Of a stretch of 63,878 nucleotides of DNA, positions 4,061 to 63,609 are shown in pieces. Positions within the stretch are counted from its first letter, which is position 1, and every line of letters starts with the position of its first letter. Origin of the DNA: Chiloscyllium plagiosum. Lineage: Eukaryota. The notes beneath the pieces were generated by a model, which was given only the letters and a program-made list of their open reading frames with translations, ran no database searches and had not been told where the DNA came from. A program made the position numbers and the translations under genes. Where the stretch lies: assembly GCF_004010195.1 (NCBI RefSeq), contig NC_057754.1, positions 3,469,634 to 3,533,511 of the forward strand, given 5' to 3'.

Positions 4061-4176
4061 GAATCAAGGGCTTTTGCCTGAAATGTCGATCTCCCTGCTC
4101 CTCAGATGTTGCCTGACCTCTGTTTTTCCAGCACTATCATCTTGACTCTAATCTCCAACATCTGCAGTACTCACTT
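4061..4176 (+). mobile_element. Decayed PLE terminal repeat (same family as 41.9 kb and 61.5 kb)
   Basis: gaatc-[core missing]-aagggcttttgcctgaaatgtcgat...ccagca...ctccaacatctgcagt. Confidence 0.6.
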
Positions 4177-5983
4177 TATCACTAACGATGGGCTAGTGGG
4201 CTGGAGGGAGCTGTTGGTCTCAGAAATCAACTGTTTGTTTCGCTCATTTTTAAAAGATTAATTGTCGAGGGCAGGTTGCATGCCCTTGTGGCATTCCCTG
4301 TGAAGTGGGCCTTAAAGGAGCGATCTAATCAAGGTACTCAGGACAATTTGTGAACTTGATAGTGTCAAAGTATTTCCTGGTGTGGAGCAAGCCCAGAACA
4401 AAAGGGTGTGTATATAAAAAAAAATCACAATGGGAGGGTGATGTGAACCAGATAGTGGTAAAAGCCTGGAACTGTTGTCCTGAAGCTCACCTAGGGTTCA
4501 ACAAAGATTTGCCAACTGTTTTCATTATTCGGGGGGGGGGTTGGGAGGAGAGTTTGGAAAGGGATCAGCCCAATGGAATTGTGGATACCATCTGATCAGT
4601 GCGTGCTCTCTCTCTCTCTGCCTGGCTCTCCACCCTTTGACCAGCTCCTGACCTGGTTGAGAGCTGTAGCCCTGTGGGGGTCACCATCCAGAACCAATGA
4701 TTGGTTTAAATCACGGTGAGGGACTCACTGCCCCTGTCGCTGTTTGAAGTCGGGGAATGCGGGCATGTTATCAAGATCTGGAGGTAATTAGCTTGAAAGC
4801 TCCCGAGCCGGGGTGTAATCCCGTGGAGGGACCTGATCCTGTGAACTGCTCAGAAACAGGCAGCTTGCCACTTGCTGGAAATGTTTTCCATCTCTGATCC
4901 CCTGGAATGCAGCTGTTTTTTTCCATATATTAGCTTGGCAACGTGAACAGATTTGTGGCTGTTGTGGAAACGTGGCTGTTTGAGTCGGCACTCCACCCTG
5001 GGGCTGTTTCTCCGCTGAAGTGCTGGCTATCCATTGTACTGTTAGATTTGAAGAGATAGTAAATGGGGAGGCAACGCTGATTGATGAAGGGACTTGGTGC
5101 AGCAAGTGGAAAATTATGGCACTGGTCTGCCTTACTTTCCCACTCCCATCCCCTTCCCTTTCTCTTGACAGTACCCTCCCTCAATGCCTGCTGGTCAGTC
5201 CTCCATGTGAAAATCTCAACCATGGTCCCTTGAGGGTCCTATCCCCTCCCCTTTGCCAGTCCACAATCTTAGCACCGTTCCAGTTCTGACCTTGAGTAAG
5301 CATGCCTTAACTACCTGGGGCTGGGCTCGGAGTCCCTAAACTCTGCTGTTACGATGTTCCTGAAACAGACCTATTAGATTGAGCTTTCGATCACCTGTCT
5401 GTAGTGTTTCAACGTGCTTTTTAGTTTGTTACTCTGAAGCCAGTTGGCTTGCTGAATTTCATTGAAGGTGCTATATAAATGCAGGCTGTTGAGATAAGGA
5501 TGACCTTGCAGGGCTGTGTACATGTGCTAGCAATAGTTGCCAAAATCAGAAATTGCTGGAAAAGCTCAGGTCTGGTTGCATCAGTGGAGAGAAATGTTAG
5601 TGCCTTGGGTCGAGTGACCCTTGCTTGGGCTAACCTCTCTCCTAGGCCATGATGTGTTTAGCTCCTGTTCTCGCGCTAGTTAATGTGAGGTGGCAATCCC
5701 AACCACGTTATTGGTGTGTTAATCACTTCAGCTGGCTGTTTCAGGTCTGAGCGTCGGCCACTGTTACCACTTGGTTTGGACTCGGGATGGGGTGTGGCCC
5801 CGCCTGTCAGCTTGCTTTGGTCCTGAAATAGCTGGAGCTGGGAGGGGGCTGGTTCCTCAGCTGATGACCTGTAATAAACAGTGGAGTCTAGTCCTGGAGT
5901 GAATGTAGTGTACAGTATTTGATAAGATTATCAGCATTTCCATGGTTCTGACTTCTATCTTTTTTTGTTGTTTCCCTGCTCAG

Positions 5984-6081
5984 ATTTAACTGTGCACAGC
6001 TGCCAAACCCAGTCCTGGAGAGTATTAGCATCATTGATACTCCTGGCATCCTGTCTGGAGAGAAGCAGCGGATCAGCCGAG
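5984..6081 (+). CDS. EHD1: EHD1 coding exon 2 (98 nt; dynamin-like G domain, [32 protein letters not shown])
   Basis: Pyrimidine tract + CAG acceptor at 5981-5983, GTAAG donor at 6082. Translation contains the [19 protein letters not shown] motif, and the phase-1 end matches exon 3. Confidence 0.96.
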
Positions 6082-7254
6082 GTAAGGGCACTGCCAATGT
6101 GGCTCTATAATGGGGAGAGGAGCTGGTGGCCCACACCACCGCTTTAATGTGGGCTCAGAGGAAAACCCTCATGTTCTTAAATCCTGTTGAATAGGGAGTA
6201 GTTGGGGCTTTTTGTTACATTAATCAGGCACCTCCAACAGTCATGGGTTCTCAATTTATCCTGCTGCTCACAAGGGTTGGTTGTCGAATACACTCCAGTT
6301 GGGTGAGATGTTGCTGGGCAGAAATGAGCTGCCCAGCTTTTTTTGGTATGTTTAAGAAAAACACTTAAATTGTTTGCCGGAGAGTTTCTCAGACTGGTGC
6401 TTTAGAGTTGGTTGTAATTATCCACCTTGCCTGACTAATCAGTTAGTCTTGTCGCTAGTGATCATTCTGCAATCATTGCTCTGTTTCAGAACCCAGTGTG
6501 AGGTTGGCGTTTGTACATTCAGGTTGCTCGAGTCCCCTCTATACTCTGGTAGTACTGCAGGGTCGTGCTGAGATTCAATCGCAGAGGGACACGCTCTCCC
6601 AGCTGAGTGTCTCGGGCTGCCCCGCCCCTAATCTTCAAATAATGGCCTGAAATGGTCTTGTTTCTGCAGAGCAGTGAGTCATTCTTCAGTGTAGAAGCAG
6701 GCCCTTCAGTCCAACTTGTCCATGCTGACCAGATATCCTAACTTAATCTAGTCCCACTAATTCTTTCCTATTCATACACTGATCCAGATGCCTTTTTAAA
6801 TACTAATTGTACCAGTCTCCTCCACTTCCTCTGGCAGCTTATGCCCCACACACCACTGGGTGAAGAGTTTGCCCTTGAGTCCCTTAGTGCAGAGAGAACA
6901 CATAAGCCGGCTTGTGCAGTCACTAATGGATGGACTGCCTGTGCTGTGAACTTGCTGTCTCGCTGTGGTGGAGTGATAAGGTGACAACTGGCCCCTTCAT
7001 TTACTGTTTGACTGACTTTTTGCCTTGGTTATTTTGCTGCTCAGTGTTGCGTTCCCATCAGATTGCTTCCAAGACCCAAGTTCTAGCTGCACAATGTGAA
7101 CTGTCTTTGGCCTTGAGGCTGTACTGAGTGAGACTTGTTGTTTAGGTCGTGACTTTGTGTCTGGTGAAAGCAGCCTTGGGATAGTGTGCTTCAACACTGA
7201 CATACTGGCCCTTGTTCTGATCTGCCTGCCTGCGTGCATCATGGCCTCACCACT

Positions 7255-7630
7255 AAACATCCCAGAGAACATCTCTGGGACAGCCCCACCAATCAACCCC
7301 ACTGCCCTGTGCCTCGTCACTTTACCTCCCCCATCCCTCCCCCCGCTTGGCCAAGAGCATGCAACCTCAACCTCCACCACCAAACCCTAACCACCCAACA
7401 TCTGGAGGAAGTACACCTAATCCGCTGATCTTGTGTTTGGAGGGTCCTGAGGCAATGTTCGATTTCACCAGTTCTCTCGTTCTCCCACCCCCTACCTTAT
7501 CACAGGTCTAAACTTCCAACTTGGCATTGCCCTCATGACCTGTCCTACCTGCCCATCTTCCTTCCAACCTGTCTGCTCCCCCCTCCTCTCTGCCCTACCA
7601 CCATTACCCCCCACCTCCATCCACCTATCA
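7255..7630 (+). mobile_element. Decayed PLE endonuclease C-terminus and 3' region
   Basis: REHLWDSPTNQPH..V..HF.SP and LEEVHLI resemble REHLRDTRTNQP at 41.7 kb. Followed by a similar C-rich 3' region. Confidence 0.55.
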
Positions 7631-10600
7631 TATATAAGCGGGGGGAGGGGGGTGTTGTAGTAGTGTTTCCTGACTGTGGCCATCTCTGCCAGTGCAGCTC
7701 TCCTACAGTACTGTGTTCAAGTGTGCTTGTACAGCTGCTATAACCCCAGGCTGTAGCTACCTGACTGTCCAGATACACACATCTTCATCCAACCCGCCTG
7801 TGAAGTTGTTAAAAATCAATCTGGGGGTGATGGGGGTGGTGTCACTGTTTTCTTACACTCTATCCAGTTGGGGTGTGAAGAATCGCCCAGTGGTTTCTCT
7901 TGTGTTCAAGTGGCGAAGAGCTATCGAGACTCTGAACCTACCCTGTTGTGAAGTGAGCGTTGATGGAAATCTGGAGTTTCCCCTTCAGTCAGTAATTAGC
8001 GAGTAAGGAGGAAACAAGGCAGGCTTTGATAAGAACTGAAGTGATTCAAGTTTGGTCACAGTAACTAAGCTGCTCTTTGTTTGTGCATATCAGTCTGCTG
8101 CCATACTCCCGAGTTAGACTTCTGTCTATATTCCCCTTATCTCAGTAACTTTCTCTTTCCCTTGTTGGCTTTTTATGCTGGCTTTGCTTATGTTTTGTTG
8201 TGTTTGCCACTGTCAGATGTCGTGGGTGCTGGACGTCGTGGTGAGGTGTGATCATGGCACTCAATGGCAATTATCTGGGACCCTTCATCAAAAAAACACC
8301 CCTCCATTCTTGGCTGAGCCATTGCAGGGCTTCTCAGACTCTCTGGTTTCCAGGAAGCTGCCTGTGGGTGTCGGGAAGGTGGGGGGAAGCTGTGAATTGA
8401 GCACAGCGACCGGTTTCACTTGCCCAGAACTAGCTGGCCGTAGAGAGTATCCTGTCCACCTGTTCCTGTGGTGCGAACACCAGACTGCTACAGCCCTCTT
8501 GTATCTAATCCAGCCTTCCTTCCTGATGTTATAAAAGCCCATGGGTGGCAAGAGCAGGAATCTTTGGGGAATTCTCTTTGCATCACAGCTCAGGAGGATT
8601 TTTTTTGAGTGGGGGTGCTGCTTTCCATTGGCATTTTGACCCAGTTCTGACTTGATGGAATCCTGTACAGGTCTGAGGTACAGAAGCACTTTATCATTTT
8701 AATTTGTGCTTGGGTTTTCCTGCACACTGTCCATTAATTCACCTCTAGGTTGGTGAATAAGTAGCGCATTGAATGGGGTATTTCTCAGGCAATCTAACAG
8801 CTTAATGATCGGAGAATAGTATTTTATACCAGATTAATGAAGTTTAATCAGTAGGAATTGAAGTTGCTCCTGTTTTGTCCCTTACTGTGTTTTGAGAAAC
8901 TAGTTGTCTCTTTCTGTTCTTAGTGCGCCAGGTGCCAACAGTCCCCATTCAGAAAGTTTGGGGCTTTTGGCTTCGGTGATCTCAGCTGGTCAGGCTGCAC
9001 AAAGTGTTACAGCTTCATCCTTTCTGCTGCCTAGTTCCCTTTTTCCGTGACATTTAATTGCCTTTTTCTCTTGTCTCTCCCCTCTCTGCTGAAATGTGTT
9101 AACCGCACCTTCATTTCATTTAACGATACGCATGTAGCTTTTCAAATCTCTGCGTGGTGTCTGTGTCTCCCTCCAACAATGCACATCCCACTGCTTCACC
9201 TCTGCTTCCATGTGTGTCCCAGTTTTGAAACTTTGTCTACAAATTCCTCCTGTCTAAATCTTTCCTTTAACAGAGCCTCTTCTTTCCTCCTGTTCCAATA
9301 TCTTGCTGGGGTGCCACATTGTATCTTCTGACGCTATTTCTGATCTTTTAATTCGCTTGTCACATGTCTGATTGCAGGAAAACTGGCTTTTCACAAATGC
9401 TGCCTCACTCTCAGAAGCACTTTTGATGTGCCCTGGCTGTTGTAATGTAGGTGACAGTGATGCTCAATTTGCCCACAGCTAGCTCCCAATGACAGCAATA
9501 TGGTATGGCCAGATTTTATGATGTCAATTGAGGGCCAGAAAGTAGCCGCAGATGCTGGTGGGCACCTCTGCACCTTTTCAACAAAGTTTCCTTTGTTCCT
9601 GGCACAGTCTAGTGTTTAATTTCACAGGCAGCAGCTCCAGTAGTATCGCACCCCCTCTCCCCCGTCTCCCTACAGGGGGTGAATCTCTATCTGAAAGCTC
9701 AGCTGTTCATGTTCTGTGACAGTGGTCTCAACCTGTGCTGTTGGCTTTGGGGAGGGGCTATGGATGATGGGAAGGGGTTAGGGATACAGACTGTCCCCAT
9801 GAAGGAGCCTATTGTCGTGTGATGGTGGAGTGTGCCTGTCACTGAACTTCCCAGTGAGGAATGGTGTTGCTGTCTCACAGGGCTGCCATTGTTTGTAGTG
9901 TTTTGTTTGCAAAAGCTTTGTTTTTGGCCCAAAGGGACTGGAAACTGAGTCTGCATAAACTTGACATCAGGAAGCGTGGCCTGCGCTCTCTGGCCAGAGT
10001 GCTGATGAGATTAACCCTGATGTGAGGGAACAGGGGCATGTTCCATACATGTACCCCCATTCCTCCCTTATCCTTCCCACTGGGCCCTGCATTCCACCCC
10101 TAAATCTACAGGGTAGAGAGGGGATCAGCAGCGATCACTGTTCCCAGTCGGGGTGTGGCCTTGGCTGCAAGGGGTGTCTCTCAGATTTGCGTATTTCAAT
10201 GTAAGCTCTAACTTCTCCAATGGCATGGTGTGCAGGGCAGCGTTGATAATCTGGGTTCTGAATCATCCGAGTAAGATCAAGGTGCTAATGCTTGGGTAAA
10301 TCAGAGGCCAACGCAGAATGCTAGAGACATCCAACAGGTCTTTCTCTGTGGAGAGAGTAGGAGAGTTGACATAGTGTCTGGAATGATTCTTCAGAACTGA
10401 AGTTCTTGAAGTCATACCAAACTTGCTACATTAATGCTCCTCTCTCTCTCCCCGCACAGATGTCACCAGACCAGCAGAGTTTCCCCAGTGTCAGTCATTA
10501 CAGATTTCCGTGTCATGGTGTCTATCTTCTTTCTACTTGGGGTAGATGTGGAATTATCTGCGCCTGTCGGATCTGGGGAGGTTATAGGGAGATGAACACC

Positions 10601-12603: not shown

Positions 12604-12702
12604 TGATTTTGCCTGTCCTCGGATGCTGCCTGAACTGCTGTGCTCTTCCAGCACCACTGATCCAGAATCTGGTTTCCAGCATCTGCAGTCATTGTTTTTA
12701 CC
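12604..12702 (+). mobile_element. PLE terminal repeat 3' part
   Basis: Near-identical to 41970-42033 and to the reverse complement of 41359-41400. Confidence 0.7.
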
Positions 12703-15700
12703 TAATGAACATTGCTCGCCCAGTCTGACTCAAATCGTCAACTGTTTCTCTCTCTCTCTCTGTGTGCGTGTGCAGATGTGCTTACTGAATATTTATGACA
12801 GGAAGATCTTTGTCTTAAAGGATTGAGGATTATGTTTTGAGATAGACAGAAGAAATGTCCGGCCTAATTCTGGCTACCTGCTGCTTATCAAGTGGCTCAG
12901 ACTTGAGGAAACTGATTTTCTGTTCTGGGGTGTGGCTATGGGATGTAAGGTACAGGTTCAAAGAACAGTCTGTGCCCTGTAATCTACTGTCGTACCTAGA
13001 GTTGCTTTTGAATGTCAATATCCGTTCTGTACCAAGTCTGGTAGTGTTGATATTGATAGGTGTACTTGCAAATCCCACATGATTGAACTGTGAATGTGTT
13101 GTACATCTATTGCAAGTCACTGGGGATTTCTTTATCTCCGGCTTAGTTGGTATAGTTAAGTGTGCTCACTGCTACTCTGTCCCAGAGGCAGGACAGTGTC
13201 CTCCAGGCTCACTAACTTCCTAAAAGAGGCTGCCAGAGAATGTGGGGCCTGGCTTGCAGGCCGATCTGTTGCTCATTACAGGTCCCTAACGCAGAAGGGA
13301 GGTGGTGTAACCACCCAATTGGGCAATATTTCACAACTCTTGCACGTCGTCAGTCACTGGCAATGCAGGGGGAACGGCCTGTACAGCTGAGCCTGTCCCA
13401 GGACAGTTACAAAGAAACGATTGCAGCCTTGCCTTTTGTAGAGGGGTCTACCATTCCTATCTCTCCTTTATTGCAGGTCAGTGTGGCGTTCACGTTGATT
13501 TGTTCTCTGCTGCTCATACCCCAGTAGTTTACCTGAGACCAACAAATGGACAACACCACTGATTTGTTTTCAGTCATGCCCACAAAGAAAACTATCCAAT
13601 CATAATCCTATCGTCCCAGAAGTCATGTGCTGTCTTCTCTGTACATCTTCTCTCTCCAGCCACTTACCAGCTTCCCTTTTAGAAATTCCTGTGGAATCTG
13701 TCTGCACTGACCTGTCAGTATTTGAATCTCTAGCAAATTACTACTTTTCCCAGTTAGTGGACTTCCAATCAATCTGGCTCCAGAGCACGTTGATATTTTC
13801 CCTTTTTTGTTTGTTTTTCCCCTTCCAGGTTCTTGAGCACCTTGGTGAAATCACCCCTTGCCCACCTTCGTTTTAAAACAATCCTGCAGTCTTGGCCTTC
13901 CTCCCCGGAGCTGAGAGTTGGTCCGCTCAGCCTGCCCTGTGTTGTCCGAAGGTCATGGCTGATGTGATAATATCTCTGACTGACTGCTTTATATCGTTAA
14001 TGGAGATCAAGAATCTGACAGTCAAGCCTCCCTGTGCATGGTGGAAGAGAATTTCACACTGACTCTCCAAACAAGGCTTCCTACTTGGGTTCCATTTCCC
14101 CTTAAACCACCATTCTTGTTGTCATACTGTCCTTTGCATCTCTGCACTAACTTCCCTCATGTAAGGAAAGAAAAAATCTTCACAATACTCCCAGTTGCAT
14201 CTCCAAGTTTCTAAGTAATTAGTCAGATGTGCAGCATGAAGCAGACCCTTTGATCCAACTCTTCTGTGCTGATCAGACACCCCAATCTAATCTCTCCACT
14301 TGCCAGCTTTTGGCCCATATCCCTCTTAAACTCTTCTTAGTCTCACATCCATCCAGATGCCTTTGAAATGTTATAATTGTGCCACTTCCTCTGGCAGCTT
14401 ATTCCATTCACGCACCACCCTCTCCCTTGAAAAGGTTGCCCCTTAGTTCTGGACCCCCCACCCTGGGAGCAAAGACCTTGGCTATTCACCCTATCCATGC
14501 TCCTTGTGATTTTATAAACCTCTGTAAGGTCATCTCTCAGCCTCTGACAGCCCCAATCTGTTCAGTCTGTCCCTATATAGCTCAAATCCTGCAGTCCAGG
14601 AACACCCTTAGTCTTTCCTGCGCACCCTCCATTTTAACAAAATCCTTCCTATAGAAGGGTGATCAGAATGCAGTATTCCTGAAAGTGGTCTCACTAATGT
14701 CATGTACAGCTGCAACATGTTGTTACAACACAGGATAAACCCTCTGCTTAATTTAAACCAGAAACAAGATTTATCCCGTGCAGTAATCTGTGAACATTCG
14801 AGCCCAAGAACTATTTGAAGTGAAAATTAACAACTTTATTCCTTAAGTATCACAGAATAATTAACTAACAACAAGTGTAAACAACTCCTTCCCCTCCCCT
14901 ATCTTTTACTTTCCCTTCTACAGTGGTAGTCTGATAAAATCCCGGAGATTGACAAATTCAAATTTCAAAACCTACCAGCTCTCGGTTCCTCTATCTTTCT
15001 CTGTAGATTTGCTCTCTGCGTCGGTGTCAATGTTTTGTGTGCAAACTCCTTCTCTAGACAGGTACCTTGCTACATTTGTTGGTCCTTTGGCAGTTCTTGC
15101 CCACCTGTTCAATTTTTTTCAGTTTTATACCCCAAAGCATCAGTCATTTCATTGGTATCAATATTGTCCAAATACTAAATTCAAACCTGATTGGAGTTTG
15201 GTATTTGGAGCCTAATTTAAACTGTCTGAATTCAAATTTTTGTCTCCAGGCAACCCAGCTGATCTAGCTGTTTGACCAAATGTTACATTTTAAATTTTCC
15301 AGTACTGTCTGCTTCTAAGTCCTTGCTAGCTTTCAAAGTAACCGTACAGTATGCCTTCATAACTGCAAACTCCTGCACTGAATGCATGGCCCAAAAAGGT
15401 CAGCATGTCAAATGCCACTTTCTCCCCCTGTCGACCTGTGACTCCACTTTCAAGGAACACCAGCTCTCTCTCTCATGGCTCTACCATTAACTAAGCTAGC
15501 TCTGCCCTGGCTTGCCTTCTCCCGTTTGTTTCCATTTGCTTATATAACCATGTGTTGTTGACCTTGCTCTGAGCAGAGTGGACATCGTCTCCCTTCTGCA
15601 CTTAACACCCATTTGACCTCCCAACCGCTCCTTCACCTCTTAGCAACCCCTGCCTTTGGCTCTGGGCACTCCTGCCAACTGTTTGCTTGCTGTTACTCAC

Positions 15701-20061: not shown

Positions 20062-20474
20062 GTTATGACTTTGCGGCGGTGTTGGAATGGTTTGCTGAGC
20101 GGGTGGACAGGATCATCCTGCTGTTTGATGCCCACAAACTGGACATCTCTGACGAGTTCTCGGAGGTCATCAAGGCCATGAAGAACCATGAGGACAAGAT
20201 CCGGGTGGTGCTCAACAAAGCTGACCAGATCCACACGCAGCAGCTGATGCGGGTCTACGGTGCCCTCATGTGGTCACTCGGCAAGATCATCAACACGCCC
20301 GAGGTGATCCGTGTCTACATCGGCTCCTTCTGGTCCCAGCCCCTCCTCATCGCCGAGAACCGCAAGCTGTTTGAGGCAGAGGAGCAGGACTTGTTCAGGG
20401 ACATCCAGAGCCTACCGAGGAATGCAGCGCTGAGAAAACTCAACGACCTGATCAAGAGAGCACGCCTGGCCAAG
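20062..20474 (+). CDS. EHD1: EHD1 coding exon 3 (413 nt; [33 protein letters not shown]...NKAD...KRARLAK)
   Basis: ttccAG acceptor ending 20061, GTAAG donor at 20475. ORF 20079..20519 carries the EHD NKAD motif and helical region. Confidence 0.97.
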
Positions 20475-23130: not shown

Positions 23131-23136
23131 TCTCTT

Positions 23137-30195: not shown

Positions 30196-30316
30196 AAAGT
30201 GATGCTGGAAATCAGTCCCGATTTAGAGTGGTGCTGGAATAGCACAGCAAGTTAGGCACCATCCGAGGAGCAGGAAAATTGCAGTTTCGGGCAAAAGCCC
30301 TTCATCAGGATTCAGG
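30196..30316 (-). mobile_element. PLE terminal repeat with hammerhead core (helix III mutated), inserted in a CR1 fragment
   Basis: Minus strand reads gaatc CTGATGA A gggcttttgccc GAAA ctgc aattttcctgctcctcggatg. Confidence 0.65.
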
Positions 30317-31710: not shown

Positions 31711-32178
31711 GTAAAATTGTTGTGGTTCTGTTCGCCGAGCTGGGAATTTGTGTTGCAGACGTTTCGTCCCCTGTCTCGGTGACATCCTCAGTGCTTGGGA
31801 GCCTCCTGTGAAGCGCTTCTGTGGTCTTTCCTCCGGCATTTATAGTGGCCTGTCCCTGCCGCTTCCGGTTGTCAGTTCCAGCTGTCCGCTGTAGTGGTTG
31901 GTATTTTGGATCCAGGTCGATGTGCTTATTGATTGAATCTGTGGATGAATGCCATGCCTCTAGGAATTCCGCTGACAACCGGAAGCGGCAGAGACAAACC
32001 ACTATAAATGCCGGAGGAAAGATCACAGAAGCGCTTCACAGGAGGCTCCCAAGCACTGAGGATGTCACCTAGACAGGGGGTGAAACATCTGTAACACAAA
32101 TTCCCAGCTCGGCGAACAGAACCACAACAACGAGCACCCGAGCTACAAATCTTCTCTCACTTTGAACAGTAAAATTGT
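31711..32178. mobile_element. Penelope-like element remnant with inverted terminal repeats, in EHD1 intron 4
   Basis: ~158-bp inverted arms (31717-31875 / 31972-32130). Minus-strand peptide EFLEAWHS..SINKHIDLDPKYQPL is typical of the PLE endonuclease C-terminus. Flanking direct repeat GTAAAATTGT at 31711-31720 and 32169-32178. Confidence 0.8.
31755..31794 (-). ncRNA. Minimal hammerhead ribozyme motif, core intact (PLE terminal repeat)
   Basis: Minus strand reads GCA CUGAGGA U GUCACC-GAGACA-GGGGAC GAAA CGUC^UGC. Helix I GCA/UGC, helix II with one mismatch, loopless palindromic helix III (ACGU), GUC cleavage triplet. Confidence 0.75.
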
Positions 32179-41345: not shown

Positions 41346-42047
41346 TATGATTGATATTGGTAAAAACAATGACTGCAGATGCTGGAAACCAGATTCTGGA
41401 AACAGACCCCACCACCAGGGATATATTTCCCTCCCCACCCCTCTCCGCCTTCCGCAAAGACCGTTCCCTCTGTGACTACCTGGTCAGGTCCACGCCCCCC
41501 CTACGACCCACCCTCCCATCCTGGCACTTTCCCCTGCCACCGCAGGAACTGTAAAACCTGTGCCCACACCTCCTCCCTCACCTCCATCCAAGGCCCTAAA
41601 GGAGCCTTCCACATCCATCAAACTTTTACCTGCACATCCACTAATATCATTTATTATATCCGTTGCTCCCGATGCGGTCTCATCTACACCGGGGAGACTG
41701 GGCGCCTCCTAGCAGAGCGCTTTAGAGAACATCTCCGAGACACCCGCACCAATCAACCAAACCTGTCCGGACTTGTCCGACCTGCCCAGCTCCTTTTCCA
41801 CCTATCCACTCCACCCTCTCCTCCCTGACCTATCACCTTCATCTCCTTCCCCACTGACCTATTGTACTCTATGCTACTCTCTCCCCACCCCCCCCCTCCT
41901 CTAGCTTATCTCTCCACGCTTCAGGCCCTCTGCCTTTATTCCTGATGAAGGGCTTTTGCCTGAAACGTCGATTTTGCCTGTCCTCTGATGCTGCCTGAAT
42001 TGCTGTGCTCTTCCAGCACCACTGATCCAGAATATGATTGATATTGG
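41346..42047 (+). mobile_element. 5'-truncated Penelope-like element with GIY-YIG endonuclease fragment
   Basis: ORF 41379..41828 contains C..C...TFTCTSTNIIYYIRCSRCGLIYTGETGRLLAERFREH (GIY-YIG with Cys motifs). Hammerhead at 41938. 15-bp direct repeat TATGATTGATATTGG at 41346-41360 and 42033-42047. Confidence 0.85.
41938..41973 (+). ncRNA. Minimal hammerhead ribozyme motif, core intact
   Basis: AUUC CUGAUGA A GGGC-UUUU-GCCU GAAA CGUC^GAUU. Lies immediately 3' of a PLE GIY-YIG fragment. Helix I has one U-U mismatch. Confidence 0.7.
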
Positions 42048-42296
42048 CCAATCCTCTCCCTGTAGTGTATGCTGGCTTGCACCAGGGGGTGCTGGTTAGC
42101 TGGCGGTGTCAAGGTAGGGAGTCTGATCTATGAGCATTCAGTCATCTCCAGCACACCAGGGTCAAGCTGCTGTTCCGTGTTGAAATAGCTCCAGAGCCCA
42201 GACCTGAGGGACAGGGGTGTTTACTGGTCAGTTGACTGACCCCATGATCAGTCTTTTGCTATAACTTCTGTGGTCTGCGATCTTCTACTGCACAAC

Positions 42297-42331
42297 CACC
42301 TGATGAAGGAGCAGCACTCCAAAAGCTAGTG
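42297..42331 (+). ncRNA. Minimal hammerhead motif of a third family (AGCU helix III), G12>A decayed
   Basis: CAC CUGAUGA A GGAG-CAGCA-CUCC AAAA GCUA^GUG, followed by AATAAA and a PLE-type tail (aataaacctgttggac...aacctggtgttgtg) to ~42390. Confidence 0.6.
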
Positions 42332-43363
42332 CTTCCAAATAAACCTGTTGGACCATACATAACCTGGTGTTGTGATTTTTTAACTTTGTAGACCCCATGC
42401 TGCTTTGTTGTAAGACTGTGCTCTTATATTCCAATATTCTACACTTAAATTCTAAATCTGCTCAATGCTACCTGTATGCCTCTGTCCAAATCCTTTGTTC
42501 TGTACATCCTTACTATGATCCACCTGTAACGCTTGTAAACAAAGCTTTTCACTGTACTGCGGTACATGTAACAATAAATCAATCGCAGAACCTCTACCGT
42601 GTTGAAGCAGGCCATTCAGCCCTTCTGAAGAGCACCCCACGCAGACTCACTATCCTACGCTATCGCCCTACATTGCCTGCATCTCCCTGGCCTCTTTAAC
42701 ATGGCCAATTCACCTTAACCTGCACATCTTGGGGCAGTAGGAAGAACATGCAATCACCCAAGGGTCGAATCGGACCCAGGTTCACTGTGACGCAGCAGCG
42801 CTAACCACTGTGCCACCCGTTAGCCTAATGCTTCCCAGACTCTTGATGTCTGACAGTCAGACCTCACTCTGTATCGTCTCGGGCATCTCCATGCCTGGTG
42901 CCCAGGGTCTGCTGCTGGATCAGCATCTGAGAGCACATGAATTCCTGATGGCACTCCTTGTGCAGTACTGAGGGAGAGCTGTGCAGGGGTTGGCCATCAT
43001 ATCGGGAAGCCCCAAGGTGAAGCTGGGGGGAGTGTGTAGTTTAAACAGGTTGGGCTGAATAGCCTGTTTGTTTTGCTCTGTATATACTTTGGACTGTTTC
43101 TCTTGGAAAGGAACGAGAAAAAGCTTTTTTGGTATCCAGCATTGGTGTTGAGGGCCTGCATGTATTGTCTGTCTCTTGCCAGCCTGGTGAAGGTGGTGGT
43201 GGTGAGCTGCTCTCTTGAGCCATCTGCTCTTTAGGATGCACAGTCGTGTTGACCGAAGATTCCGACCCAGCCACACTGAAGGGACGGCCAATATATTTCA
43301 AAGTCAGGAGGGTGAGGGGAATTTGCAGGGGCTGGTGTTCCCATGTATCTGCTGCCCCTTGTC

Positions 43364-46238: not shown

Positions 46239-46860
46239 ACCTCCCAATGGATGTAGGTTTGCTCACTGAGCTGAAAGGTTCACTTTCAGACGTCACCCGA
46301 CTAGATAACATCTTCAGTGAGCCTCTGGATGAGGCATTGCAGATGATTCCTGCTTTCTATTTATATATTTGGGTTTCTTGGTGATGTCATTTTCTGAGGT
46401 GGTCATTTCCTATGGTGATGATTTTTCCTGTTCTTTTTCTCAATGGGGTGGTAGATGGGGTCCAAGTCAATGTATTTGCCACCAACCCAAAGAATCCCAA
46501 AACATTTAAATGGAACATTGCAGATGATTCCTGCTTTCTATTTATATATTTGGGTTTCTTGGTGATGTCATTTTCTGAGGTGGTCATTTCCTATGGTGAT
46601 GATTTTTCCTGTTCTTTTTCTCAGTGGGGTGGTAGATGGGGTCCAAGTCAATGTATTTGCCACCAACCCAAAGAAACCCAAAACATTTAAATGGAAAGAA
46701 GGAATCATCAGCAATGCTTTGTCCAGAGGCTCACTGATGATGTTACCTACTATGGTGACGAAACATCTGAAAATGACCCTTCCAACTCAGCGAGCAAACC
46801 TACATCCAGAACCTCAACCTGAGCTACAAATCTTCTCAAAACTCACTATGACCTCCCAAT
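46239..46860. mobile_element. Penelope-like fold-back insertion inside a CR1 fragment
   Basis: Inverted arms ~46249-46382 / ~46668-46807, internal 181-bp tandem duplication, and direct repeat ACCTCCCAAT at 46239-46248 and 46851-46860. Confidence 0.75.
46731..46770 (+). ncRNA. Minimal hammerhead motif with a helix III G>A change
   Basis: UCA CUGAUGA U GUUACC-UACUAU-GGUGAC GAAA CAUC^UGA. Helix I UCA/UGA covaries with GCA/UGC (31.8 kb) and CCA/UGG (59.3/60.0 kb). Confidence 0.65.
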
Positions 46861-47657: not shown

Positions 47658-48146
47658 CATGTGTGTCTGTGTTTCTGCATGTCTGTCTGTACATGTGTGT
47701 GTCTGCCTGTACGTGTGTGTCTGTCTGTACATGTGTGTCTGTCTGTGTGTGTGTGTGTGTGTGTGTAAAGGGCTTTTGCCCAAAAAGTCGATTTTCCTGC
47801 TCCTCGGATACTGTCTGATCTGCTGTGCTTTTCCAGCACCACTCTAGTCTTGACTCTAATCTCCGCACCTGCAGTACCCACTTCTGCTTGTGCATGCGTG
47901 TCTGTGTTTGTGTCTGTCTGTGCATGTGTGTCTATGTCTGTGTGTCTGTCTATGCGTGTGTGTCTGTGTTTATGACTGTGTGTGCATGTGTGTGTCTATC
48001 TGTGCGTGTGTGTCTGCGTTTCTGTGTCTGTGTGTGTCTGTCTATGCGTGTTTCTGTGTGTCTGTCTGTGCATGTGTGTCTGCCTATGTGTGTGTCTGCC
48101 TGTGCGTGTGTCTGTGTTTCTCTGTCTGTCTGTCTGTGCGTGTGTG
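47658..48146. repeat. (TG/TCTG)n low-complexity repeat, interrupted at 47766-47887
   Basis: Direct reading. Confidence 0.9.
47766..47887 (+). mobile_element. PLE terminal repeat fragment inside a (TG/TCTG)n microsatellite
   Basis: aaagggcttttgcccaaaaagtcgattttcctgctcctcgg...gcagtacccact, flanked on both sides by TG-rich repeat. Confidence 0.7.
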
Positions 48147-49084: not shown

Positions 49085-49450
49085 CACGGTGGCTCAGTGG
49101 CTAGCACTGCTGCCTCACAGCACCAGGGGCCCAGGTTCAATTCCACCCTCGGGCAACTGTGTGTGTGGAGTTTGCACATTATCCCTGTGTCTGCAAGGGT
49201 TTCCTCCCACAGTCCAAAGATGTGCAGGTTTGGGTGGATTGGCCATGCTAAATTGTCCCATAGTGCCCAGGGATGTGCAGGTTAGGGTGGATTGGCCGTG
49301 CTAAGTTGCCCCATAGTGCCCAGGGATGTGTAGATTAGGTAGGTTGTGCATGGGAAGTGCAGGGATTTGGGTGGGATGCTTTTTGGAGGGTCGGTGCGGA
49401 CTGGATGGCCGAATGGCCTCTTTCCACACTGCAGGGATTCTATGATTCTA
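49085..49450 (+). mobile_element. HE1-type SINE with internal ~53-bp duplication
   Basis: A/B boxes and V-domain. The segment gatgtgcaggtt.gggtggattggcc.tgctaa.ttg.cccatagtgcccagg occurs twice. Confidence 0.8.
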
Positions 49451-49544
49451 ACCCCTAAGTAATTTTGAACACTTCTAACAAGTCACTCCCGAGAGAAAAC
49501 AGTCCCAGCCTCTGCCGTCATTCTAGACGGGACTGTTGGTGTTT

Positions 49545-51161: not shown

Positions 51162-54100
51162 TGTATAACACTAGGGTACAGTACTGATGGGGACAGGTCT
51201 GTCCCTGTATAACACTAGGGTACAGTACTGGTGGGGACAGGTCTGTCGCTGTATAACACTGGGGTACAGTACTGGTGGGGACAGGTCTGTCACTGTGTAA
51301 CACTGGGGTACAGTACTGGTGGGGACAGGTCTGTCACTGTATAACACTGGGGTACAGTACTGGTGGGGACAGGTCTGTCACTGTATAACACTGGGGTACA
51401 GTACTGGTGGGGACAGGTCTGTCACTGTATAACACTGGGGTACAGTACTGGTGGGGACAGGTCTGTCACTGTATAACACTGGGGTACAGTACTGGTGGGG
51501 ACAGGTCTGTCACTGTATAACACTGGGGTACAGTACTGGTGGGGACAGGTCTGTCACTGTATAACACTGGGGTACAGTACTGGTGGGGACAGGTCTGTTA
51601 CTGTATAACACTGGGGTACAGTACTGGTGGGGACAGGTCTGTCACTGTATAACACTGGGGTACAGTACTGGTGGGGACAGGTCTGTCACTGTATAACACT
51701 GGGGTACAGTACTGGTGGGGACAGGTCTGTCACTGTATAACACTGGGGTACAGTACTGGTGGGGACAGGTCTGTCACTGTATAACACTGGGGTACAGTAC
51801 TGGTGGGGACAGGTCTGTCACTGTATAACACTGGGGTACAGTACTGGTGGGGACAGGTCTGTCACTGTATAACACTGGGGTACAGTACTGGTGGGGACAG
51901 GTCTGTTACTGTATAACACTGGGGTACAGTACTGGTGGGGACAGGTCTGTCACTGTATAACACTGGGGTACAGTACTGGTGGGGACAGGTCTGTCACTGT
52001 ATAACACTGGGGTACAGTACTGGTGGGGACAGGTCTGTCACTGTATAACACTGGGGTACAGTACTGGTGGGGACAGGTCTGTCACTGTATAACACTGGGG
52101 TACAGTACTGGTGGGGACAGGTCTGTCACTGTATAACACTGGGGTACAGTACTGGTGGGGACAGGTCTGTCACTGTATAACACTGGGGTACAGTACTGGT
52201 GGGGACAGGTCTGTTACTGTATAACACTGGGGTACAGTACTGGTGGGGACAGGTCTGTCACTGTATAACACTGGGGTACAGTACTGGTGGGGACAGGTCT
52301 GTCACTGTATAACACTGGGGTACAGTACTGGTGGGGACAGGTCTGTCACTGTATAACACTGGGGTACAGTACTGGTGGGGACAGGTCTGTCACTGTATAA
52401 CACTGGGGTACAGTACTGGTGGGGACAGGTCTGTCACTGTATAACACTGGGGTACAGTACTGGTGGGGACAGGTCTGTCACTGTATAACACTGGGGTACA
52501 GTACTGGTGGGGACAGGTCTGTTACTGTATAACACTGGGGTACAGTACTGGTGGGGACAGGTCTGTCACTGTATAACACTGGGGTACAGTACTGGTGGGG
52601 ACAGGTCTGTCACTGTATAACACTGGGGTACAGTACTGGTGGGGACAGGTCTGTCACTGTATAACACTGGGGTACAGTACTGGTGGGGACAGGTCTGTCA
52701 CTGTATAACACTGGGGTACAGTACTGGTGGGGACAGGTCTGTCACTGTATAACACTGGGGTACAGTACTGGTGGGGACAGGTCTGTCACTGTATAACACT
52801 GGGGTACAGTACTGGTGGGGACAGGTCTGTTACTGTATAACACTGGGGTACAGTACTGGTGGGGACAGGTCTGTCACTGTATAACACTGGGGTACAGTAC
52901 TGGTGGGGACAGGTCTGTCACTGTATAACACTGGGGTACAGTACTGGTGGGGACAGGTCTGTCACTGTATAACACTGGGGTACAGTACTGGTGGGGACAG
53001 GTCTGTCACTGTATAACACTGGGGTACAGTACTGGTGGGGACAGGTCTGTCACTGTATAACACTGGGGTACAGTACTGGTGGGGACAGGTCTGTCACTGT
53101 ATAACACTGGGGTACAGTACTGGTGGGGACAGGTCTGTTACTGTATAACACTGGGGTACAGTACTGGTGGGGACAGGTCTGTCACTGTATAACACTGGGG
53201 TACAGTACTGGTGGGGACAGGTCTGTCACTGTATAACACTGGGGTACAGTACTGGTGGGGACAGGTCTGTCACTGTATAACACTGGGGTACAGTACTGGT
53301 GGGGACAGGTCTGTCACTGTATAACACTGGGGTACAGTACTGGTGGGGACAGGTCTGTCACTGTATAACACTGGGGTACAGTACTGGTGGGGACAGGTCT
53401 GTCACTGTATAACACTGGGGTACAGTACTGGTGGGGACAGGTCTGTTACTGTATAACACTGGGGTACAGTACTGGTGGGGACAGGTCTGTCACTGTATAA
53501 CACTGGGGTACAGTACTGGTGGGGACAGGTCTGTCACTGTATAACACTGGGGTACAGTACTGGTGGGGACAGGTCTGTCACTGTATAACACTGGGGTACA
53601 GTACTGGTGGGGACAGGTCTGTCACTGTATAACACTGGGGTACAGTACTGGTGGGGACAGGTCTGTCACTGTATAACACTGGGGTACAGTACTGGTGGGG
53701 ACAGGTCTGTCACTGTATAACACTGGGGTACAGTACTGGTGGGGACAGGTCTGTTACTGTATAACACTGGGGTACAGTACTGGTGGGGACAGGTCTGTCA
53801 CTGTATAACACTGGGGTACAGTACTGGTGGGGACAGGTCTGTCACTGTATAACACTGGGGTACAGTACTGGTGGGGACAGGTCTGTCACTGTATAACACT
53901 GGGGTACAGTACTGGTGGGGACAGGTCTGTCACTGTATAACACTGGGGTACAGTACTGGTGGGGACAGGTCTGTCACTGTATAACACTGGGGTACAGTAC
54001 TGGTGGGGACAGGTCTGTCACTGTATAACACTGGGGTACAGTACTGGTGGGGACAGGTCTGTTACTGTATAACACTGGGGTACAGTACTGGTGGGGACAG

Positions 54101-55663
54101 GTCTGTCACTGTATAACACTGGGGTACAGTACTGGTGGGGACAGGTCTGTCACTGTATAACACTGGGGTACAGTACTGGTGGGGACAGGTCTGTCACTGT
54201 ATAACACTGGGGTACAGTACTGGTGGGGACAGGTCTGTCACTGTATAACACTGGGGTACAGTACTGGTGGGGACAGGTCTGTCACTGTATAACACTGGGG
54301 TACAGTACTGGTGGGGACAGGTCTGTCACTGTATAACACTGGGGTACAGTACTGGTGGGGACAGGTCTGTCACTGTATAACACTGGGGTACAGTACTGGT
54401 GGGGACAGGTCTGTCACTGTATAACACTGGGGTACAGTACTGGTGGGGACAGGTCTGTCACTGTATAACACTGGGGTACAGTACTGGTGGGGACAGGTCT
54501 GTTACTGTATAACACTGGGGTACAGTACTGGTGGGGACAGGTCTGTCACTGTATAACACTGGGGTACAGTACTGGTGGGGACAGGTCTGTCACTGTATAA
54601 CACTGGGGTACAGTACTGGTGGGGACAGGTCTGTCACTGTATAACACTGGGGTACAGTACTGGTGGGGACAGGTCTGTCACTGTATAACACTGGGGTACA
54701 GTACTGGTGGGGACAGGTCTGTCACTGTATAACACTGGGGTACAGTACTGGTGGGGACAGGTCTGTCACTGTATAACACTGGGGTACAGTACTGGTGGGG
54801 ACAGGTCTGTCACTGTATAACACTGGGGTACAGTACTGGTGGGGACAGGTCTGTCACTGTATAACACTGGGGTACAGTACTGGTGGGGACAGGTCTGTCA
54901 CTGTATAACACTGGGGTACAGTACTGGTGGGGACAGGTCTGTCACTGTATAACACTGGGGTACAGTACTGGTGGGGACAGGTCTGTCACTGTATAACACT
55001 GGGGTACAGTACTGGTGGGGACAGGTCTGTCACTGTATAACACTGGGGTACAGTACTGGTGGGGACAGGTCTGTCACTGTATAACACTGGGGTACAGTAC
55101 TGGTGGGGACAGGTCTGTCACTGTATAACACTGGGGTACAGTACTGGTGGGGACAGGTCTGTCACTGTATAACACTGGGGTACAGTACTGGTGGGGACAG
55201 GTCTGTCACTGTATAACACTGGGGTACAGTACTGGTGGGGACAGGTCTGTCACTGTATAACACTGGGGTACAGTACTGGTGGGGACAGGTCTGTCACTGT
55301 ATAATACTGGGGTACAGTACTGGTGGGGACGGGTCTGTCACTGTATAACACTGGGGTACAATACTGGTGGGGACAGGTCTGTCCCTGTACAACACTGGGG
55401 TACAATACTGGTGGGGACAGGTCAGTCACTGTATAACACTGGGGTACAGTACCAGTGGGGACAGGTCTGTCGCTGTATAACACTGGGGTACAGTACCGGT
55501 GGGGACAGGTCTGCCACTGTATAACACTAGGGTACAGTACTGGTGGCGACAGGTCTGTCACTGTATAACACTGGGGTACAGTACTGGTGGGGACAGGTCT
55601 GCCACTGTATAACACTGGGGTACAGTACTGATGGGGTCAGGTCTGTCACTGTATAATACTAGG
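51162..55663. repeat. 44-bp minisatellite, ~102 copies (ctgtataacactggggtacagtactggtggggacaggtctgtca)
   Basis: Direct reading: line pattern recurs every 660 nt (15x44). Core homogeneous, edges diverged. Confidence 0.98.
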
Positions 55664-56117
55664 ACTGGATACGAGGTAGGAACTGAGGGAGCAGCCACTG
55701 TACCGAGGGCCAAGTTTGTGCCTGGGAACAGGACAGGACTCAGTGAATGAAAGAATGTTGTATTTCAGGTTTATAAGACAGGTTTGGGCCCTGCCTCAGC
55801 CTGATGTGTCTGTAGTTTATGGATTGTGCCTTGATATATCTCCAAGCTCAGAAACTCCGTCATCATTCTGGTGACATTGTTTGACAGGCGGAACCACAGC
55901 GTCAGGGAAGAGGCAGGGGACAGTGGACAGTCACCACCAGCCTGTCAGGCTCTGCAATATGACTTCATTGATCCTGAAACTTACTCATACAGGCATTCTG
56001 ACAGTTTCGTAATGACATGGTTCAAAACACTTTGCAGGCAACGCTGTACACAAACAGTCAGATCCCACGGATGATTGTCACACACTGAAATCAGTTGGCA
56101 GGGGGTGAAGGAAGTCA

Positions 56118-56380
56118 GCTTTACTCTGTATCTAACCCTGTGCTGCTCCTGTCCTGGCAGTGTTTGATGGTGCAGACAGTGTAGAGGGAGCTTTACGCTG
56201 TATCTAACCCCATGCTGTCCCTGTCCTGGGAGTGTTTGATGGGGGGACAGTGTAGAGGGAGCTTTACTCTGTATCTAACCCCGTGCTGTCCCTGTCCTGG
56301 GAGTGTTTGATGGGAGATAGTGTAGAGGGAGCTTTACTCTGTATCTACCCTGAGGTATGTATGCCCGGGGAGTGTTTGAT
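56118..56380. repeat. ~69-bp minisatellite, ~4 copies
   Basis: Same unit as 44581-45085. Confidence 0.88.
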
Positions 56381-59258: not shown

Positions 59259-60150
59259 TTCTTATAACCTTTAGGGTGTAGGTTTGCTCGCTGAGCTGTA
59301 GGTTTGATATCCAGATGTTCATTACCTGGCTAGGTACCATCATCAGTGGCGACCTCCAAGTGAAGCGAAGCTGTTGTCTCCTGCTTTCTATTTATATATT
59401 TGTCCTGGATGGGGTTCCTGGGGTTTGTGGTGAAAAAAACTGGGCCAACACATCTGTCCTGGGACAGGCTAAGCAAAGACTTGCCAGAGAATTCCTAGAG
59501 GCCTGGCACTCCAACCACAANNNNNNNNNNNNNNNNNNNNNNCGTTTCGGGCATAAGCCCTTCTTCAGGAAGAAGGGCTTATGCCCGAAACGTCGATTCT
59601 CCTGCTCCTTTGATGCTGCCTGACCTGCTGCGCTTTTCCAGCAACACATTTTTAAGCTCTGATCTCCAGCATCTGAAGTCCTCACTTTCTCCTTCAGAGG
59701 GATATGAGCCAAGTGCTGGCAAATGGGACTAGGATATGTGGTCAGCATGGCCAAATTGGACCGAAGGGTCTGTTTCCTTGCTGTACAGCTCTCTGACTGA
59801 AGAGAAGACAGGCTAAGCAAAGACATGCTAGAGAATACCTAGAGGCCTGGCACTCCAACCACAATGCCATAAACAAACACATAGATCTCGATACCATCTA
59901 TCAACCCCTCAGAAAACGAACAGGAAATGACATCACCACAAACCCCAGGAACCCCATCCAGGACAAACATATAAATAAAAAGCAGGAGACAACGGCTTCG
60001 CTTCACTTGGATGTCGCCACTAATGATGTTACCTAGCCAGGTAATGAACGTCTGGATATCAAACCTACAGCTCAGCGAGCAAACCTACACCCTAAACCTC
60101 AACCTGAGCTACAAACCTTCACAAACCTTGCAAAAAAAATTCTTATAACC
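59259..60150. mobile_element. Penelope-like fold-back insertion spanning a 22-N assembly gap, with nested HHR-family and CR1-tail pieces
   Basis: Inverted arms 59270-59433 / 59933-60096, peptide LGQAKQR.AREFLEAWHSNH..INKHIDLDTIYQPL, and direct repeat TTCTTATAACC at 59259-59269 and 60140-60150. Confidence 0.75.
59521..59542. other. Assembly gap (22 N)
   Basis: N run. Confidence 1.
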
Positions 60151-61180: not shown

Positions 61181-61392
61181 ATCTGATTTGATTTATTGTT
61201 ATCACGTGTACCTAAGTACAGGCAGATCATAGCGTGCTTAGACAGAGTGAGGTATACAGGGTTACGCCACATTGGAGGCATGTAAAGCACAATCAACTTT
61301 AGCTTTGAAACTAAACAGGTCATCCAGCAGTCTAATAACAGCAGGGTAACAGCTGTTCTTCAACTTGTTGGTATATGTATTTAAGCTTCTGT

Positions 61393-61589
61393 CGAGAGCG
61401 TGGTGCTGGAAAAGCACAGCAGGTCAGGCAAGCATCCGAGGAGCAGGGGAATCGACGTTACGGGCAATTCCTAATGAAGGGCTTATGCCTGAAACGTCGA
61501 TTCCCCTGCTCCTCGGATGCTTGCCTGACCTGCTGTGCTTTTCCAGCACCGCACTCTCGCCTCTGATCTCCAGCATCTCTCACCTTCTC
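61393..61589. mobile_element. Short non-coding palindromic PLE-terminus element
   Basis: ~73-bp inverted arms 61393-61465 / 61487-61559, hammerhead motif with G5>A (cuAauga), and direct repeat CTTCTGT at 61386-61392 and 61590-61596. Confidence 0.7.
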
Positions 61590-63609
61590 CTTCTGTATCT
61601 TCTGCCTGACCGAAGAGGTAAGAAGGGATTATGACCGGGGGTGGGAGGGGTCTTTAACGATGTTGGCTGCCTTTCTGTGGCAACAAAAGTGTAAATGGAG
61701 TCAATGGATGGGAGGTTGGCTCCCTGATGATCAAGGCTATGTACACCATCTTCTATAGTTTCTTACAGAGCTGGGCAGAGCAGTTAACGTACCAGGTCGT
61801 GATGCACCCAGACAGATGCTTTCTGTAGAGGTTGGTGAGGGTCCTTATGGACGTGCTAAGTTTCCTGAGGAAGAAGAGGCATTGTTGTGTGTTCTTGACT
61901 GCCGCATTGATGTGGGAGGTCCAGGAACAGATTGTCCATCAGTCGGTGGGACGGGTCGATAATGCAGTGAAGGAAGCATATGGGATATCCCCTTTATTAG
62001 CTGAGGCAGAGAGTTTAAGAGCAGGGAAGGCTATGCTGGAACTGTATTGCTTAAGTCACATCTAGAATATTGTGGGAAATCCCCATTATAGGAGGAATGT
62101 GATTGCTCTGGAGAGGGGTGCAGAGGAGATTTCCCAGGATGTTGTCCAGACTTGAAAGTTTGGGTTAGAACATAGAACATAGACAAGTACAGCACAAAAC
62201 AGGCCCTTTGGCCCACGATGTTGTGCTGAGATTTAATCCCAATGTAAAATATAGTAACTTAACCTATGCACCCCTCAACCCACTGCTTTCCATGTGCATG
62301 TCCAGCAGTCGCTTAAATATCCCCAATGATTTCACTTCCACCACCACCGCTGGCAACGCATTCCATGCATTCACAACTCTCTGCGTAAAGAACCTACCTC
62401 TGATGTCTCCTTTATACCTTCCTCCTAATATCTTCAAACTATGACTCCTCGTACCCAGTCAATCCTGCCCTGGGGAAAAAAAACCCTCTCTGGCTATTGA
62501 CTCTATCTATTCCTCTCATTATTTTGTTGTGGAGAGAGATTGGACAGACTGGGGTCGTTATTCTTGAAGCAGAGGAGATGAGTGGGGAGATGTATAAAAT
62601 TACGAGGGGAGGTATCGATAGAGTAGACAGGAAAGAACTTTCCCTTTTTGCTGCTGAGCCAATGGCGAAACAATGATAGTGGGAAGGGGCCGGAGGCTTA
62701 GGGGCGACGTGACGAAGCTATTTTCATCTGGAGAGTAGTAGGAATCAAGACTTCACTGCCTAGAAGGATGGGAGAGATTGAAACTCTCATAACATTGAAG
62801 ACCTATTTAGATGGGCACTTGTGATGCCAGGATGTAAGAAATAAGAACTAGGAGCAGGAGTAGGCCTGAAGCCTGCTCCACCATTCAATGAGATCATAGC
62901 TGATCGTTTCATGGACTCAGCTCTACTCACCCTAATCCTTAATTCCTTCACAGGTCAAAAATCTATCTATCCATACAAGGCTATGGACTAACTGCTGGGA
63001 ATTGGGATTAGAATAGTTGGATGGTTGTGTTGTAGATCGCTGTGACTCCAGACGAACACGTGTCTCCTGAATTTATTTCAATCTGATAATGGCGGCCTCT
63101 ATTGATTGCTGTTCTCCACAAGAGGGGTCATTTGCTCTGCCCAATCAGAATTTTACAGTGCTCAATATTCCCAGAAATACTTCTTTCTGCAGTGCGGAGC
63201 TCCGAGTGGAATATTGGACTCTGTGAGCCAATGTGTCGTCACGCCAATTGGCATGTGTGAGATATCCGCCCTCAGGGGTGCAGTCACCCACTTCATTGGT
63301 CACCCTCTCGCCTTCTGTTTACAAGAGAGAACAGGCCCAGTCTCTCAATCCTTTCATGGTATGGCTATTTCAGTATTTCTTCTCTGCATCTCTCTAGCGC
63401 CTCTATCTCCTGTTTATAACATAGTGGCCAGAACTGAGTGCAGTAACTGCATGTGGTCACCAACGGGTTTGACGCAGCCTCCTGACTTTTCAATTCTCCC
63501 CCACTGAATCCCCACAGTGCGGAAGCAGGCCATTCAGCGCTTACCAACCTTCCGAAGGGCAACCCACCCCTACTCTATCCCTCCACACCTTCATTTCCCA
63601 CAGCTAATC

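Follow-up and report, generated by a model that had tools for sequence, protein, structure and literature searches.

Minimal hammerhead motifs in the pseudo-LTRs of three Penelope-like element families of the shark Chiloscyllium plagiosum, whose copies probably stem from largely uncut templates

What do hammerhead ribozymes do at the ends of Penelope-like elements (PLEs)? Their role was called unclear in Craig 2021, and the question is raised again by a 63,878-bp stretch of the genome of the shark Chiloscyllium plagiosum (assembly GCF_004010195.1, contig NC_057754.1, positions 3,469,634 to 3,533,511 of the forward strand; hereafter the window), in which three PLE families, A, B and C, carry hammerhead motifs in their pseudo-long terminal repeats (pseudo-LTRs). 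Minimal hammerhead ribozymes (min-HHRs) were described in the pseudo-LTRs of metazoan PLEs, among them the Xena, Poseidon and Neptune elements of fishes, by Cervera and De la Peña (2014, PMC4209133), and since this class of motif, its occurrence in PLEs and the notion that it works as a dimer go back to 2014-2016, the finding as first written is not new. The account that we consider probable is that the shark motifs belong to endonuclease-bearing (EN+) PLEs that left decayed, truncated copies of largely uncut templates, that these templates likely began at the front edge of the motif, and that cutting is pairwise and protein-assisted, as predicted from the fold.

Positions are given relative to the predicted cut, 0 being the first base 3' of the NUH triplet. 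With 0-2 extra bases and a helix III insert of 0-6 bases permitted, a hammerhead descriptor had 76 matches in 114 evenly chosen 10-kb stretches of the 3.56-Gb genome (1,098,397 called bases, ~1.1 Mb), compared to 0-2 in each of five shuffles. One extra base was present in 74 of the 76 matches and a 2-base helix III insert in 72. Helix III read ACGU in 38 and AGCU in 12 (50 palindromes), a CpG-decay form in 19 and another sequence in 7, and the G10.1-C11.1 pair was G-C in 56, G·U through CpG decay in 19 and another combination in 1. Exact family patterns matched 16,270 (A), 6,514 (B) and 3,033 (C) times genome-wide with no match to the reversed patterns, so that the CUGANGA/GAAA core is kept at the family level. 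All features that Cervera and De la Peña list as emerging outside their descriptor emerged here too, in agreement with a preliminary description, made from the sequence alone, of minimal type I hammerheads in PLE termini with a palindromic helix III (ACGU in A and B, AGCU in C). No hammerhead family was among the 12 Rfam matches at E ≤ 1 in the window. By their sequence, the window motifs are the known minimal type I hammerhead motif of PLEs.

The shark motifs share with the min-HHRs of PMC4209133 the type I core, the extra base between positions 9 and 10.1, the G10.1-C11.1 pair and the loopless palindromic helix III, and as a set they also share the many families per genome, the mostly single truncated copies and the close pairs on opposite strands. 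Their helices are, however, shorter than the Schistosoma sizes given there (4-5 bp for helix II of A and C; helix I has 3 bp or contains a mismatch), and at ~214 A, 69 C and 25 B matches per 1.1 Mb, or roughly a million arms genome-wide, their density is far above the 4,000-9,000 per genome given for coelacanth and Xenopus. The text of that paper and two of its supplement files contain no mention of the shark families that we could find.

Helix I differs between the families. In A it had been described as (g)aauc/gauu; the 'aauc' at 30276 comes from an insertion junction, and the main A subfamilies have AUUC/GAUU (C-G, U-A, a U·U mismatch, A-U), which leaves 2 bp, the mismatch and 1 bp, with full pairing in a minor A subfamily. 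The 5' hexamers of A were TTATTC in 38, TCATTC in 24 and GTATTC in 7 of 111 matches. Helix I has 3 bp in C and 3-4 bp with compensatory changes in B, where the covariation first noticed in the window was borne out: in eight hand-picked copies the pair types were CG 5, GC 2 and UA 1, 93.8% of cells pair, both sides vary in 3 of 10 pairs, and the covariation score was attained in 1 of 500 shuffles, which take no account of relatedness. Family B comprises three subfamilies (B1, B2 and B3). The whole core is intact in 38 of 109 A and 12 of 43 C genomic copies that span the motif.

Judged by their open reading frames (ORFs), all three families are PLEs, and the motifs lie in the pseudo-LTRs of endonuclease-bearing ones; each family adjoins the C-terminus of a GIY-YIG endonuclease. 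The family A motif follows a single frame with reverse transcriptase (RT), a CX4CxxC linker and GIY-YIG (loci L150 and L025), in which the matches to RVT_1 (E 3e-6) and GIY-YIG (E 7e-4) were both under the Pfam cut-off; the endonuclease piece of the window insertion at 41361..42032 passes the GIY-YIG cut-off. In other copies the A motif precedes the N-terminus of the ORF, which starts ~135 bases past the cut, and this junction has 2,333 exact genome matches. The pseudo-LTR of A is thus found at both ORF ends, 3' of the ORF end and 5' of the ORF start, in different copies. The closest proteins to the A ORF are from Chiloscyllium punctatum (82-91% identity). The family B motif follows a Poseidon-type endonuclease end without linker in a copy with RT frames (L086; frames read by eye); three pieces of the B ORF gave no Pfam match, and its likely AUG lies where helix II begins. 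Family C has a second, linker-bearing endonuclease, with the C motif downstream at 8 of 12 such loci; the endonuclease end, the only part compared, has 24% identity to that of A (E 2e-10) and no Pfam match. A CX2-5CxxC linker joining RT to endonuclease, which A and C have and B lacks, separates the Neptune/Nematis from the Penelope/Poseidon clades (Craig 2021). By this criterion A and C are Neptune/Nematis-type, the linker not separating the two, and B is Poseidon-type. Any narrower clade label for A, B and C is one that we presume. The three families had been called unrelated, which holds for their DNA only, A and C both being Neptune-type.

Inverted 5'-truncated partners, a tail of 35-40 bases and target duplications, all traits of EN+ PLEs, are present, and the shark copies resemble known PLE insertions in their head-to-head inverted pseudo-LTRs, 30-40-bp tail and target duplications (PMC3846280; PMC2377424; Craig 2021). 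Long 'open frames' proved to be N gaps. Direct dimers of hammerhead units were seen at L048/L049 (G000:C1:17711310 and 17711665; 355 bp), L265/L266 (224 bp) and L090 (406 bp); these were the only same-strand short-range motif pairs seen and are possibly seeds of retrozymes.

Copies were collected in the 1.1-Mb sample with only post-cut sequence as the query. Once 7 adjoining gaps had been dropped, 207 were left for A, a few of them from related families; C gave 69 and B 25. The 3' ends were bimodal in all families, at positions 35-40 bases apart (~+60/+97 in A, +52/+92 in C, +40/+75 in B). The 5' ends of A and C piled up upstream of the cut: per base, 7.76% of A ends fell at -41..-28 compared to 0.72% at -3..+3 and 0.69% at -140..-42, and the corresponding values for C were 5.38%, 0.68% and 0.76%. 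There was no 5'-end peak at the cut, where 9 of 207 A and 3 of 69 C ends lay within 3 bases, the background rate. The idea, drawn from the window copy at 12605, that copies generally start at the cut was accordingly rejected for the bulk. Because 5' ends peak 28-41 bases upstream and not at the cut, the templates would have been mostly uncut. Among C copies selected for their core, 39 of 92 begin at -41..-28 with a mode at -38, and the mode of A ends is -32/-31.

The DNA beyond the A ends is varied. The flanks of 109 A ends at -40..-20 comprised 61 of inverted element, 44 of unique DNA and 4 others; only 3 of the 109 were shared, and unknown upstream subfamilies were rejected as the source of the pile-up. 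A 3' splice site at the edge was rejected too, with no common upstream exon and the AG retained or absent. At L090 a point inside the ORF is joined to a second copy that begins at -32, which is what a template jump at an RNA end would give. Among the ORF-start copies (n = 90, with 15 adjoining gaps dropped), 26 reach the cut: 11 from -35..-28, 7 from further upstream, 5 from between and 3 exactly at 0. A cluster of ORF-start copies at +42 resulted from a deletion in the reference sequence used, and a family B cluster near -119 may be a reference artefact.

Several observations weigh against our account. Core conservation is not above that of the flank among genomic copies, and none of the copies seen was intact and full-length with its two pseudo-LTRs, long copies containing assembly gaps. 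In the unselected sample the median 5' edge was -32 in A and -34 in C (p = 0.053), so the shift between the families is weak. Family B lacks a clear 5' pile-up (7 of 64 ends at -62..-50) despite a TATA box. One of the 3 ORF-start copies that begin exactly at the cut is explained by microhomology, and 5 ORF-start loci begin at +2..+11; the ends of local alignments blur by a few bases. With few ORF-start copies beginning at the cut or at +2..+11, a minority of the templates behind them may have been cut. RNA reads cover both strands and have no position where many molecules start or end. In all eight cases folded with ViennaRNA, the double hammerhead was less stable than the best dimer fold, by 3.3-15.7 kcal/mol.

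That last result bears on how cutting could occur. Neither palindrome, ACGU or AGCU, can close a hairpin, but each can pair with its counterpart in a second copy; their existence in two versions is equivalent to a compensatory change, as inter-copy pairing would require. The gap to the best dimer fold was 3.3-4.7 kcal/mol in B3 and B2, 7.6 in B1 and 11-16 in A and C. Because the double hammerhead lies above the best fold, naked RNA would mostly misfold, and the predicted dimer cleavage likely needs the help of a protein. An unfavourable double hammerhead fits the low in-vitro min-HHR activity reported in PMC4209133 and the protein-assisted cutting of Poseidon_Ac (PAc) of Anolis (PMC11167929); a dimer result of Lünse et al. 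(RNA Biol 14:1499) is relayed in the review PMC6765202. Every close motif pair in the window is inverted, which makes pairing inside one transcript impossible.

Promoter-like sequence lies near the edge in A and C. Of 45 long C copies, 33 have TATAAA at -65..-69, and an initiator-like A follows at -37. Among eight A references, seven have TTATCT at -60..-64 and seven an initiator-like A at -32, matching the mode of A ends. The initiator-like motif at the edge is thus ~31 bases 3' of a TATA box (C) or of a conserved motif (A). The initiator consensus and a TATA-to-start spacing of 31 bases are general promoter features. In family B, TATAAA was found at -79..-87 in 21 of 45 long copies. Loose read ends recur at the -32 edge in RNA runs of three organisms, and single-cell poly(A) reads of a related organism peaked at neither a start nor an end, with no read aligning in one run. 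A TATA plus initiator-like pair is known from a rotifer PLE (Arkhipova 2013, PMC3846280) and a promoter inside the pseudo-LTR from the Penelope of D. virilis (Schostak 2008, PMC2377424); the start in D. virilis is 46 bases plus a 75-base intron upstream of the hammerhead, whereas the shark start would abut it.

From these data we propose that RNA polymerase II would start at the initiator-like A (-32 in A, -37 in C), ~31 bases past a TATA box or its equivalent. The element protein would begin reverse transcription at two sites in the tail and copy uncut RNA to its 5' end, and the outcome would be stubs of 90-135 bp, frequently fused to a second one in head-to-head orientation. Having lost the upstream promoter, a stub of this kind would be a dead end. 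The least certain steps are that two hammerheads may come together on the element protein by pairing of ACGU or AGCU and that cutting may remove the capped leader, and with it the AUG of B; the same cutting may trim read-through RNA, regulating RNA while being dispensable for insertion. A more specific version, which is possible and which we hold tentatively, is that the RNA, owing to the position of its promoter, starts with the hammerhead, which acts as a protein-triggered, dimer-gated decapping switch with no part in maturation, and that about a million ribozyme-headed stubs arose from uncut starts on pseudo-LTRs that retain the promoter.

Parts of this scheme have counterparts in Poseidon_Ac. 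PAc with a dead ribozyme inserts normally in vitro, and the tail of the PLE is tied to two reverse-transcription starts (Frangieh et al. 2024, PMC11167929). The shark families likewise have two 3' ends matching two reverse-transcription starts and no concentration of ends at the cut. The normal insertion and the missing peak at the cut speak against the suggestion in the preliminary description that the hammerheads process element RNA by this mechanism. Family B, like PAc, has its likely AUG where helix II starts, and the cut follows 28 bases on (26 in PAc); family A is unlike PAc in that its ORF starts ~135 bases past the cut. What we found in PMC11167929 included no mapping of genomic 5' ends or of the transcription start. 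Inverted junctions were attributed to self-priming on the antisense template by Arkhipova (2013, PMC3846280).

The 5' pile-up might instead reflect RT drop-off, or a 5' exonuclease stop, at a protein-bound ribozyme fold and no transcription start. An edge at the start of helix I in both A and C despite different upstream sequences speaks for such a stop, as do family B, with its TATA box and no pile-up, and the lack of an RNA start in the reads. We nevertheless regard it as unlikely: a stalled enzyme is expected inside or 3' of the fold and the observed ends lie beyond it, family C has TATA and initiator-like motifs at promoter spacing from the edge, and the end modes of A and of core-selected C copies differ. 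In the model of Cervera and De la Peña (PMC4209133), to which the processing idea of the preliminary description corresponds, the ribozyme cuts a tandem precursor at both pseudo-LTRs and the unit is circularised, the circles serving as templates. Copying of circles, too, would leave the motif whole and the 5' ends without a peak at the cut, and short direct repeats with two motifs, such as those at L048/L049, L265/L266 and L090, do exist. A circle, however, has no end at -32 to -38, which leaves the 5-10-fold pile-up there unexplained, and RNA with a dead ribozyme inserts normally in vitro (PMC11167929), so we judge this model quite unlikely here.

It is also conceivable that the motif no longer cuts and is retained as a site bound by the element protein or as a downstream part of the promoter. 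Helix I of just 3 pairs, or mismatched in the largest family, and the unfavourable active fold would suit this, and Naiad PLEs spread without any hammerhead (Craig 2021). Set against it are the persistence of the catalytic core, NUH, G10.1-C11.1 and a palindrome in two versions across divergent families, and the cutting of the anole Poseidon motif, demonstrated with core-mutant controls (PMC11167929); loss of cutting appears very unlikely to us. Uncut templates begun at the front edge of the motif remain the account that we prefer.

The window holds 16 copies of the motif (9 A, 6 B and 1 C arms) and a remnant of a fourth related family near 10394-10480. About 13-15 copies of three families had been counted before, with a layout that indeed lies far above chance, and each of the 13 positions then cited contains a copy of the family given. 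Their intactness had been overstated, as core, palindrome and NUH are all kept in only 2 of the 16, at 31791(-) (B) and 41942(+) (A, with one G·U in helix II). The substitution G5A is present at 61471 and 60020 and G12A at 42300; the palindrome has decayed to ACAU at 32056 and 46734 and to ACUG at 30308; deletions lie within or adjoin GAAA at 46317, 59313 and 60053; the 5' core is absent from the copies at 4063, 47768, 59569, 61466(-) and 12605; and the A copy at 59568(-) enters an N gap.

The most informative insertion is a 5'-truncated Neptune-type copy at 41361..42032 (+), with a 15-bp target duplication (41346-41360/42033-42047). It consists of an inverted tail piece, a zinc-finger linker plus GIY-YIG piece (to 41828), a pyrimidine-rich 3' region and a family A hammerhead at 41938..41973 (+) with intact core, an initiator-like A at 41938 and a predicted cut after 41969. 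The inverted tail at its 5' end (41361-41401) resumes exactly where the 3' end stops, the outcome expected of two reverse-transcription starts on opposite target strands. Close by, the family C stub at 42253..42397 (+) has TATAA at 42260, 69 bases upstream of the cut, a 9-bp target duplication and the G12A hammerhead at 42297-42331 (+).

Three head-to-head insertions belong to family B. The Poseidon-type B1 insertion at 31717..32168 contains an endonuclease C-terminal piece and has a 10-bp target duplication; its intact minimal hammerhead at 31755..31794 (-), with a cut predicted between 31758/31757, holds the likely ORF AUG, and its second one at 32053..32092 (+) has the ACAU palindrome. The B2 insertion at 46248..46844 has two damaged hammerheads, an internal 181-bp tandem duplication and a 10-bp target duplication. 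The B3 insertion at 59270..60138, with an endonuclease C-terminal piece and an 11-bp target duplication, has both hammerheads one A short in GAAA and is interrupted by later insertions, among them a nested family A head-to-head pair (59543..59693) whose minus arm ends at the N gap. A second A pair at 61393..61591 has a plus arm from -32 with G5A and a minus arm from -13. The remaining A copies are stubs at 4063..4177 (+; -25 to +96, without 5' core, 7-bp target duplication), 12605..12703 (+; tail only, first base exactly at the predicted cut, absent from the preliminary list), 30201..30310 (-; palindrome broken to ACUG) and 47768..47887 (+; without 5' core, flanked by TG-rich microsatellites). 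The decayed head-to-head remnant at 10340..10480 (approximate ends) is of a further hammerhead-bearing family; more such families were seen there and at loci L030, L129, L135 and L255, their cut triplet being GUU or GUC and their helix I of the AGUU/AACU type.

The window PLE copies sit in introns and flanks of an EHD-type gene (EH domain, dynamin-like), whose exons were recognised at 19977-20519, 29557-29976 and 32818-33360 (+), the insertions across 30201-32168 being intronic. Tandem repeats include a 44-bp satellite at 51162-55660 (4.5 kb, ~102 copies, 98% match), two arrays of one 70-71-bp unit (44634-45056 and 56117-56347) and 53-bp units in opposite orientations (49219-49339 and 63599-63878), which presumably resemble a shark SINE core. 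A long inverted repeat at 50306-50485, probably a LINE 3' end, was the source of spurious Rfam miRNA matches; those at 50300-50490 and 61420-61530 are plain inverted repeats with scores below gathering. None of the 32 tandem-repeat rows of the window contains the motif. Retrozymes are tandem arrays with a motif per unit, and PLE-derived, hammerhead-bearing non-LTR retrozymes are described in one chondrichthyan in a preprint (Li et al. 2026, 10.64898/2026.07.22.740005); the window copies, in contrast, are single or inverted.

In a literature search that excluded Repbase and Dfam, where the families may be catalogued, no paper was found that deals with hammerheads of shark PLEs or with PLE copies whose 5' ends lie at the motif. 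The genome of C. plagiosum is a very large natural record of reverse-transcription ends, and it gives exact candidate positions of transcription start at the edge of the ribozyme. If a start at this edge is confirmed, the PLE ribozyme would be recast as a regulator of element RNA.

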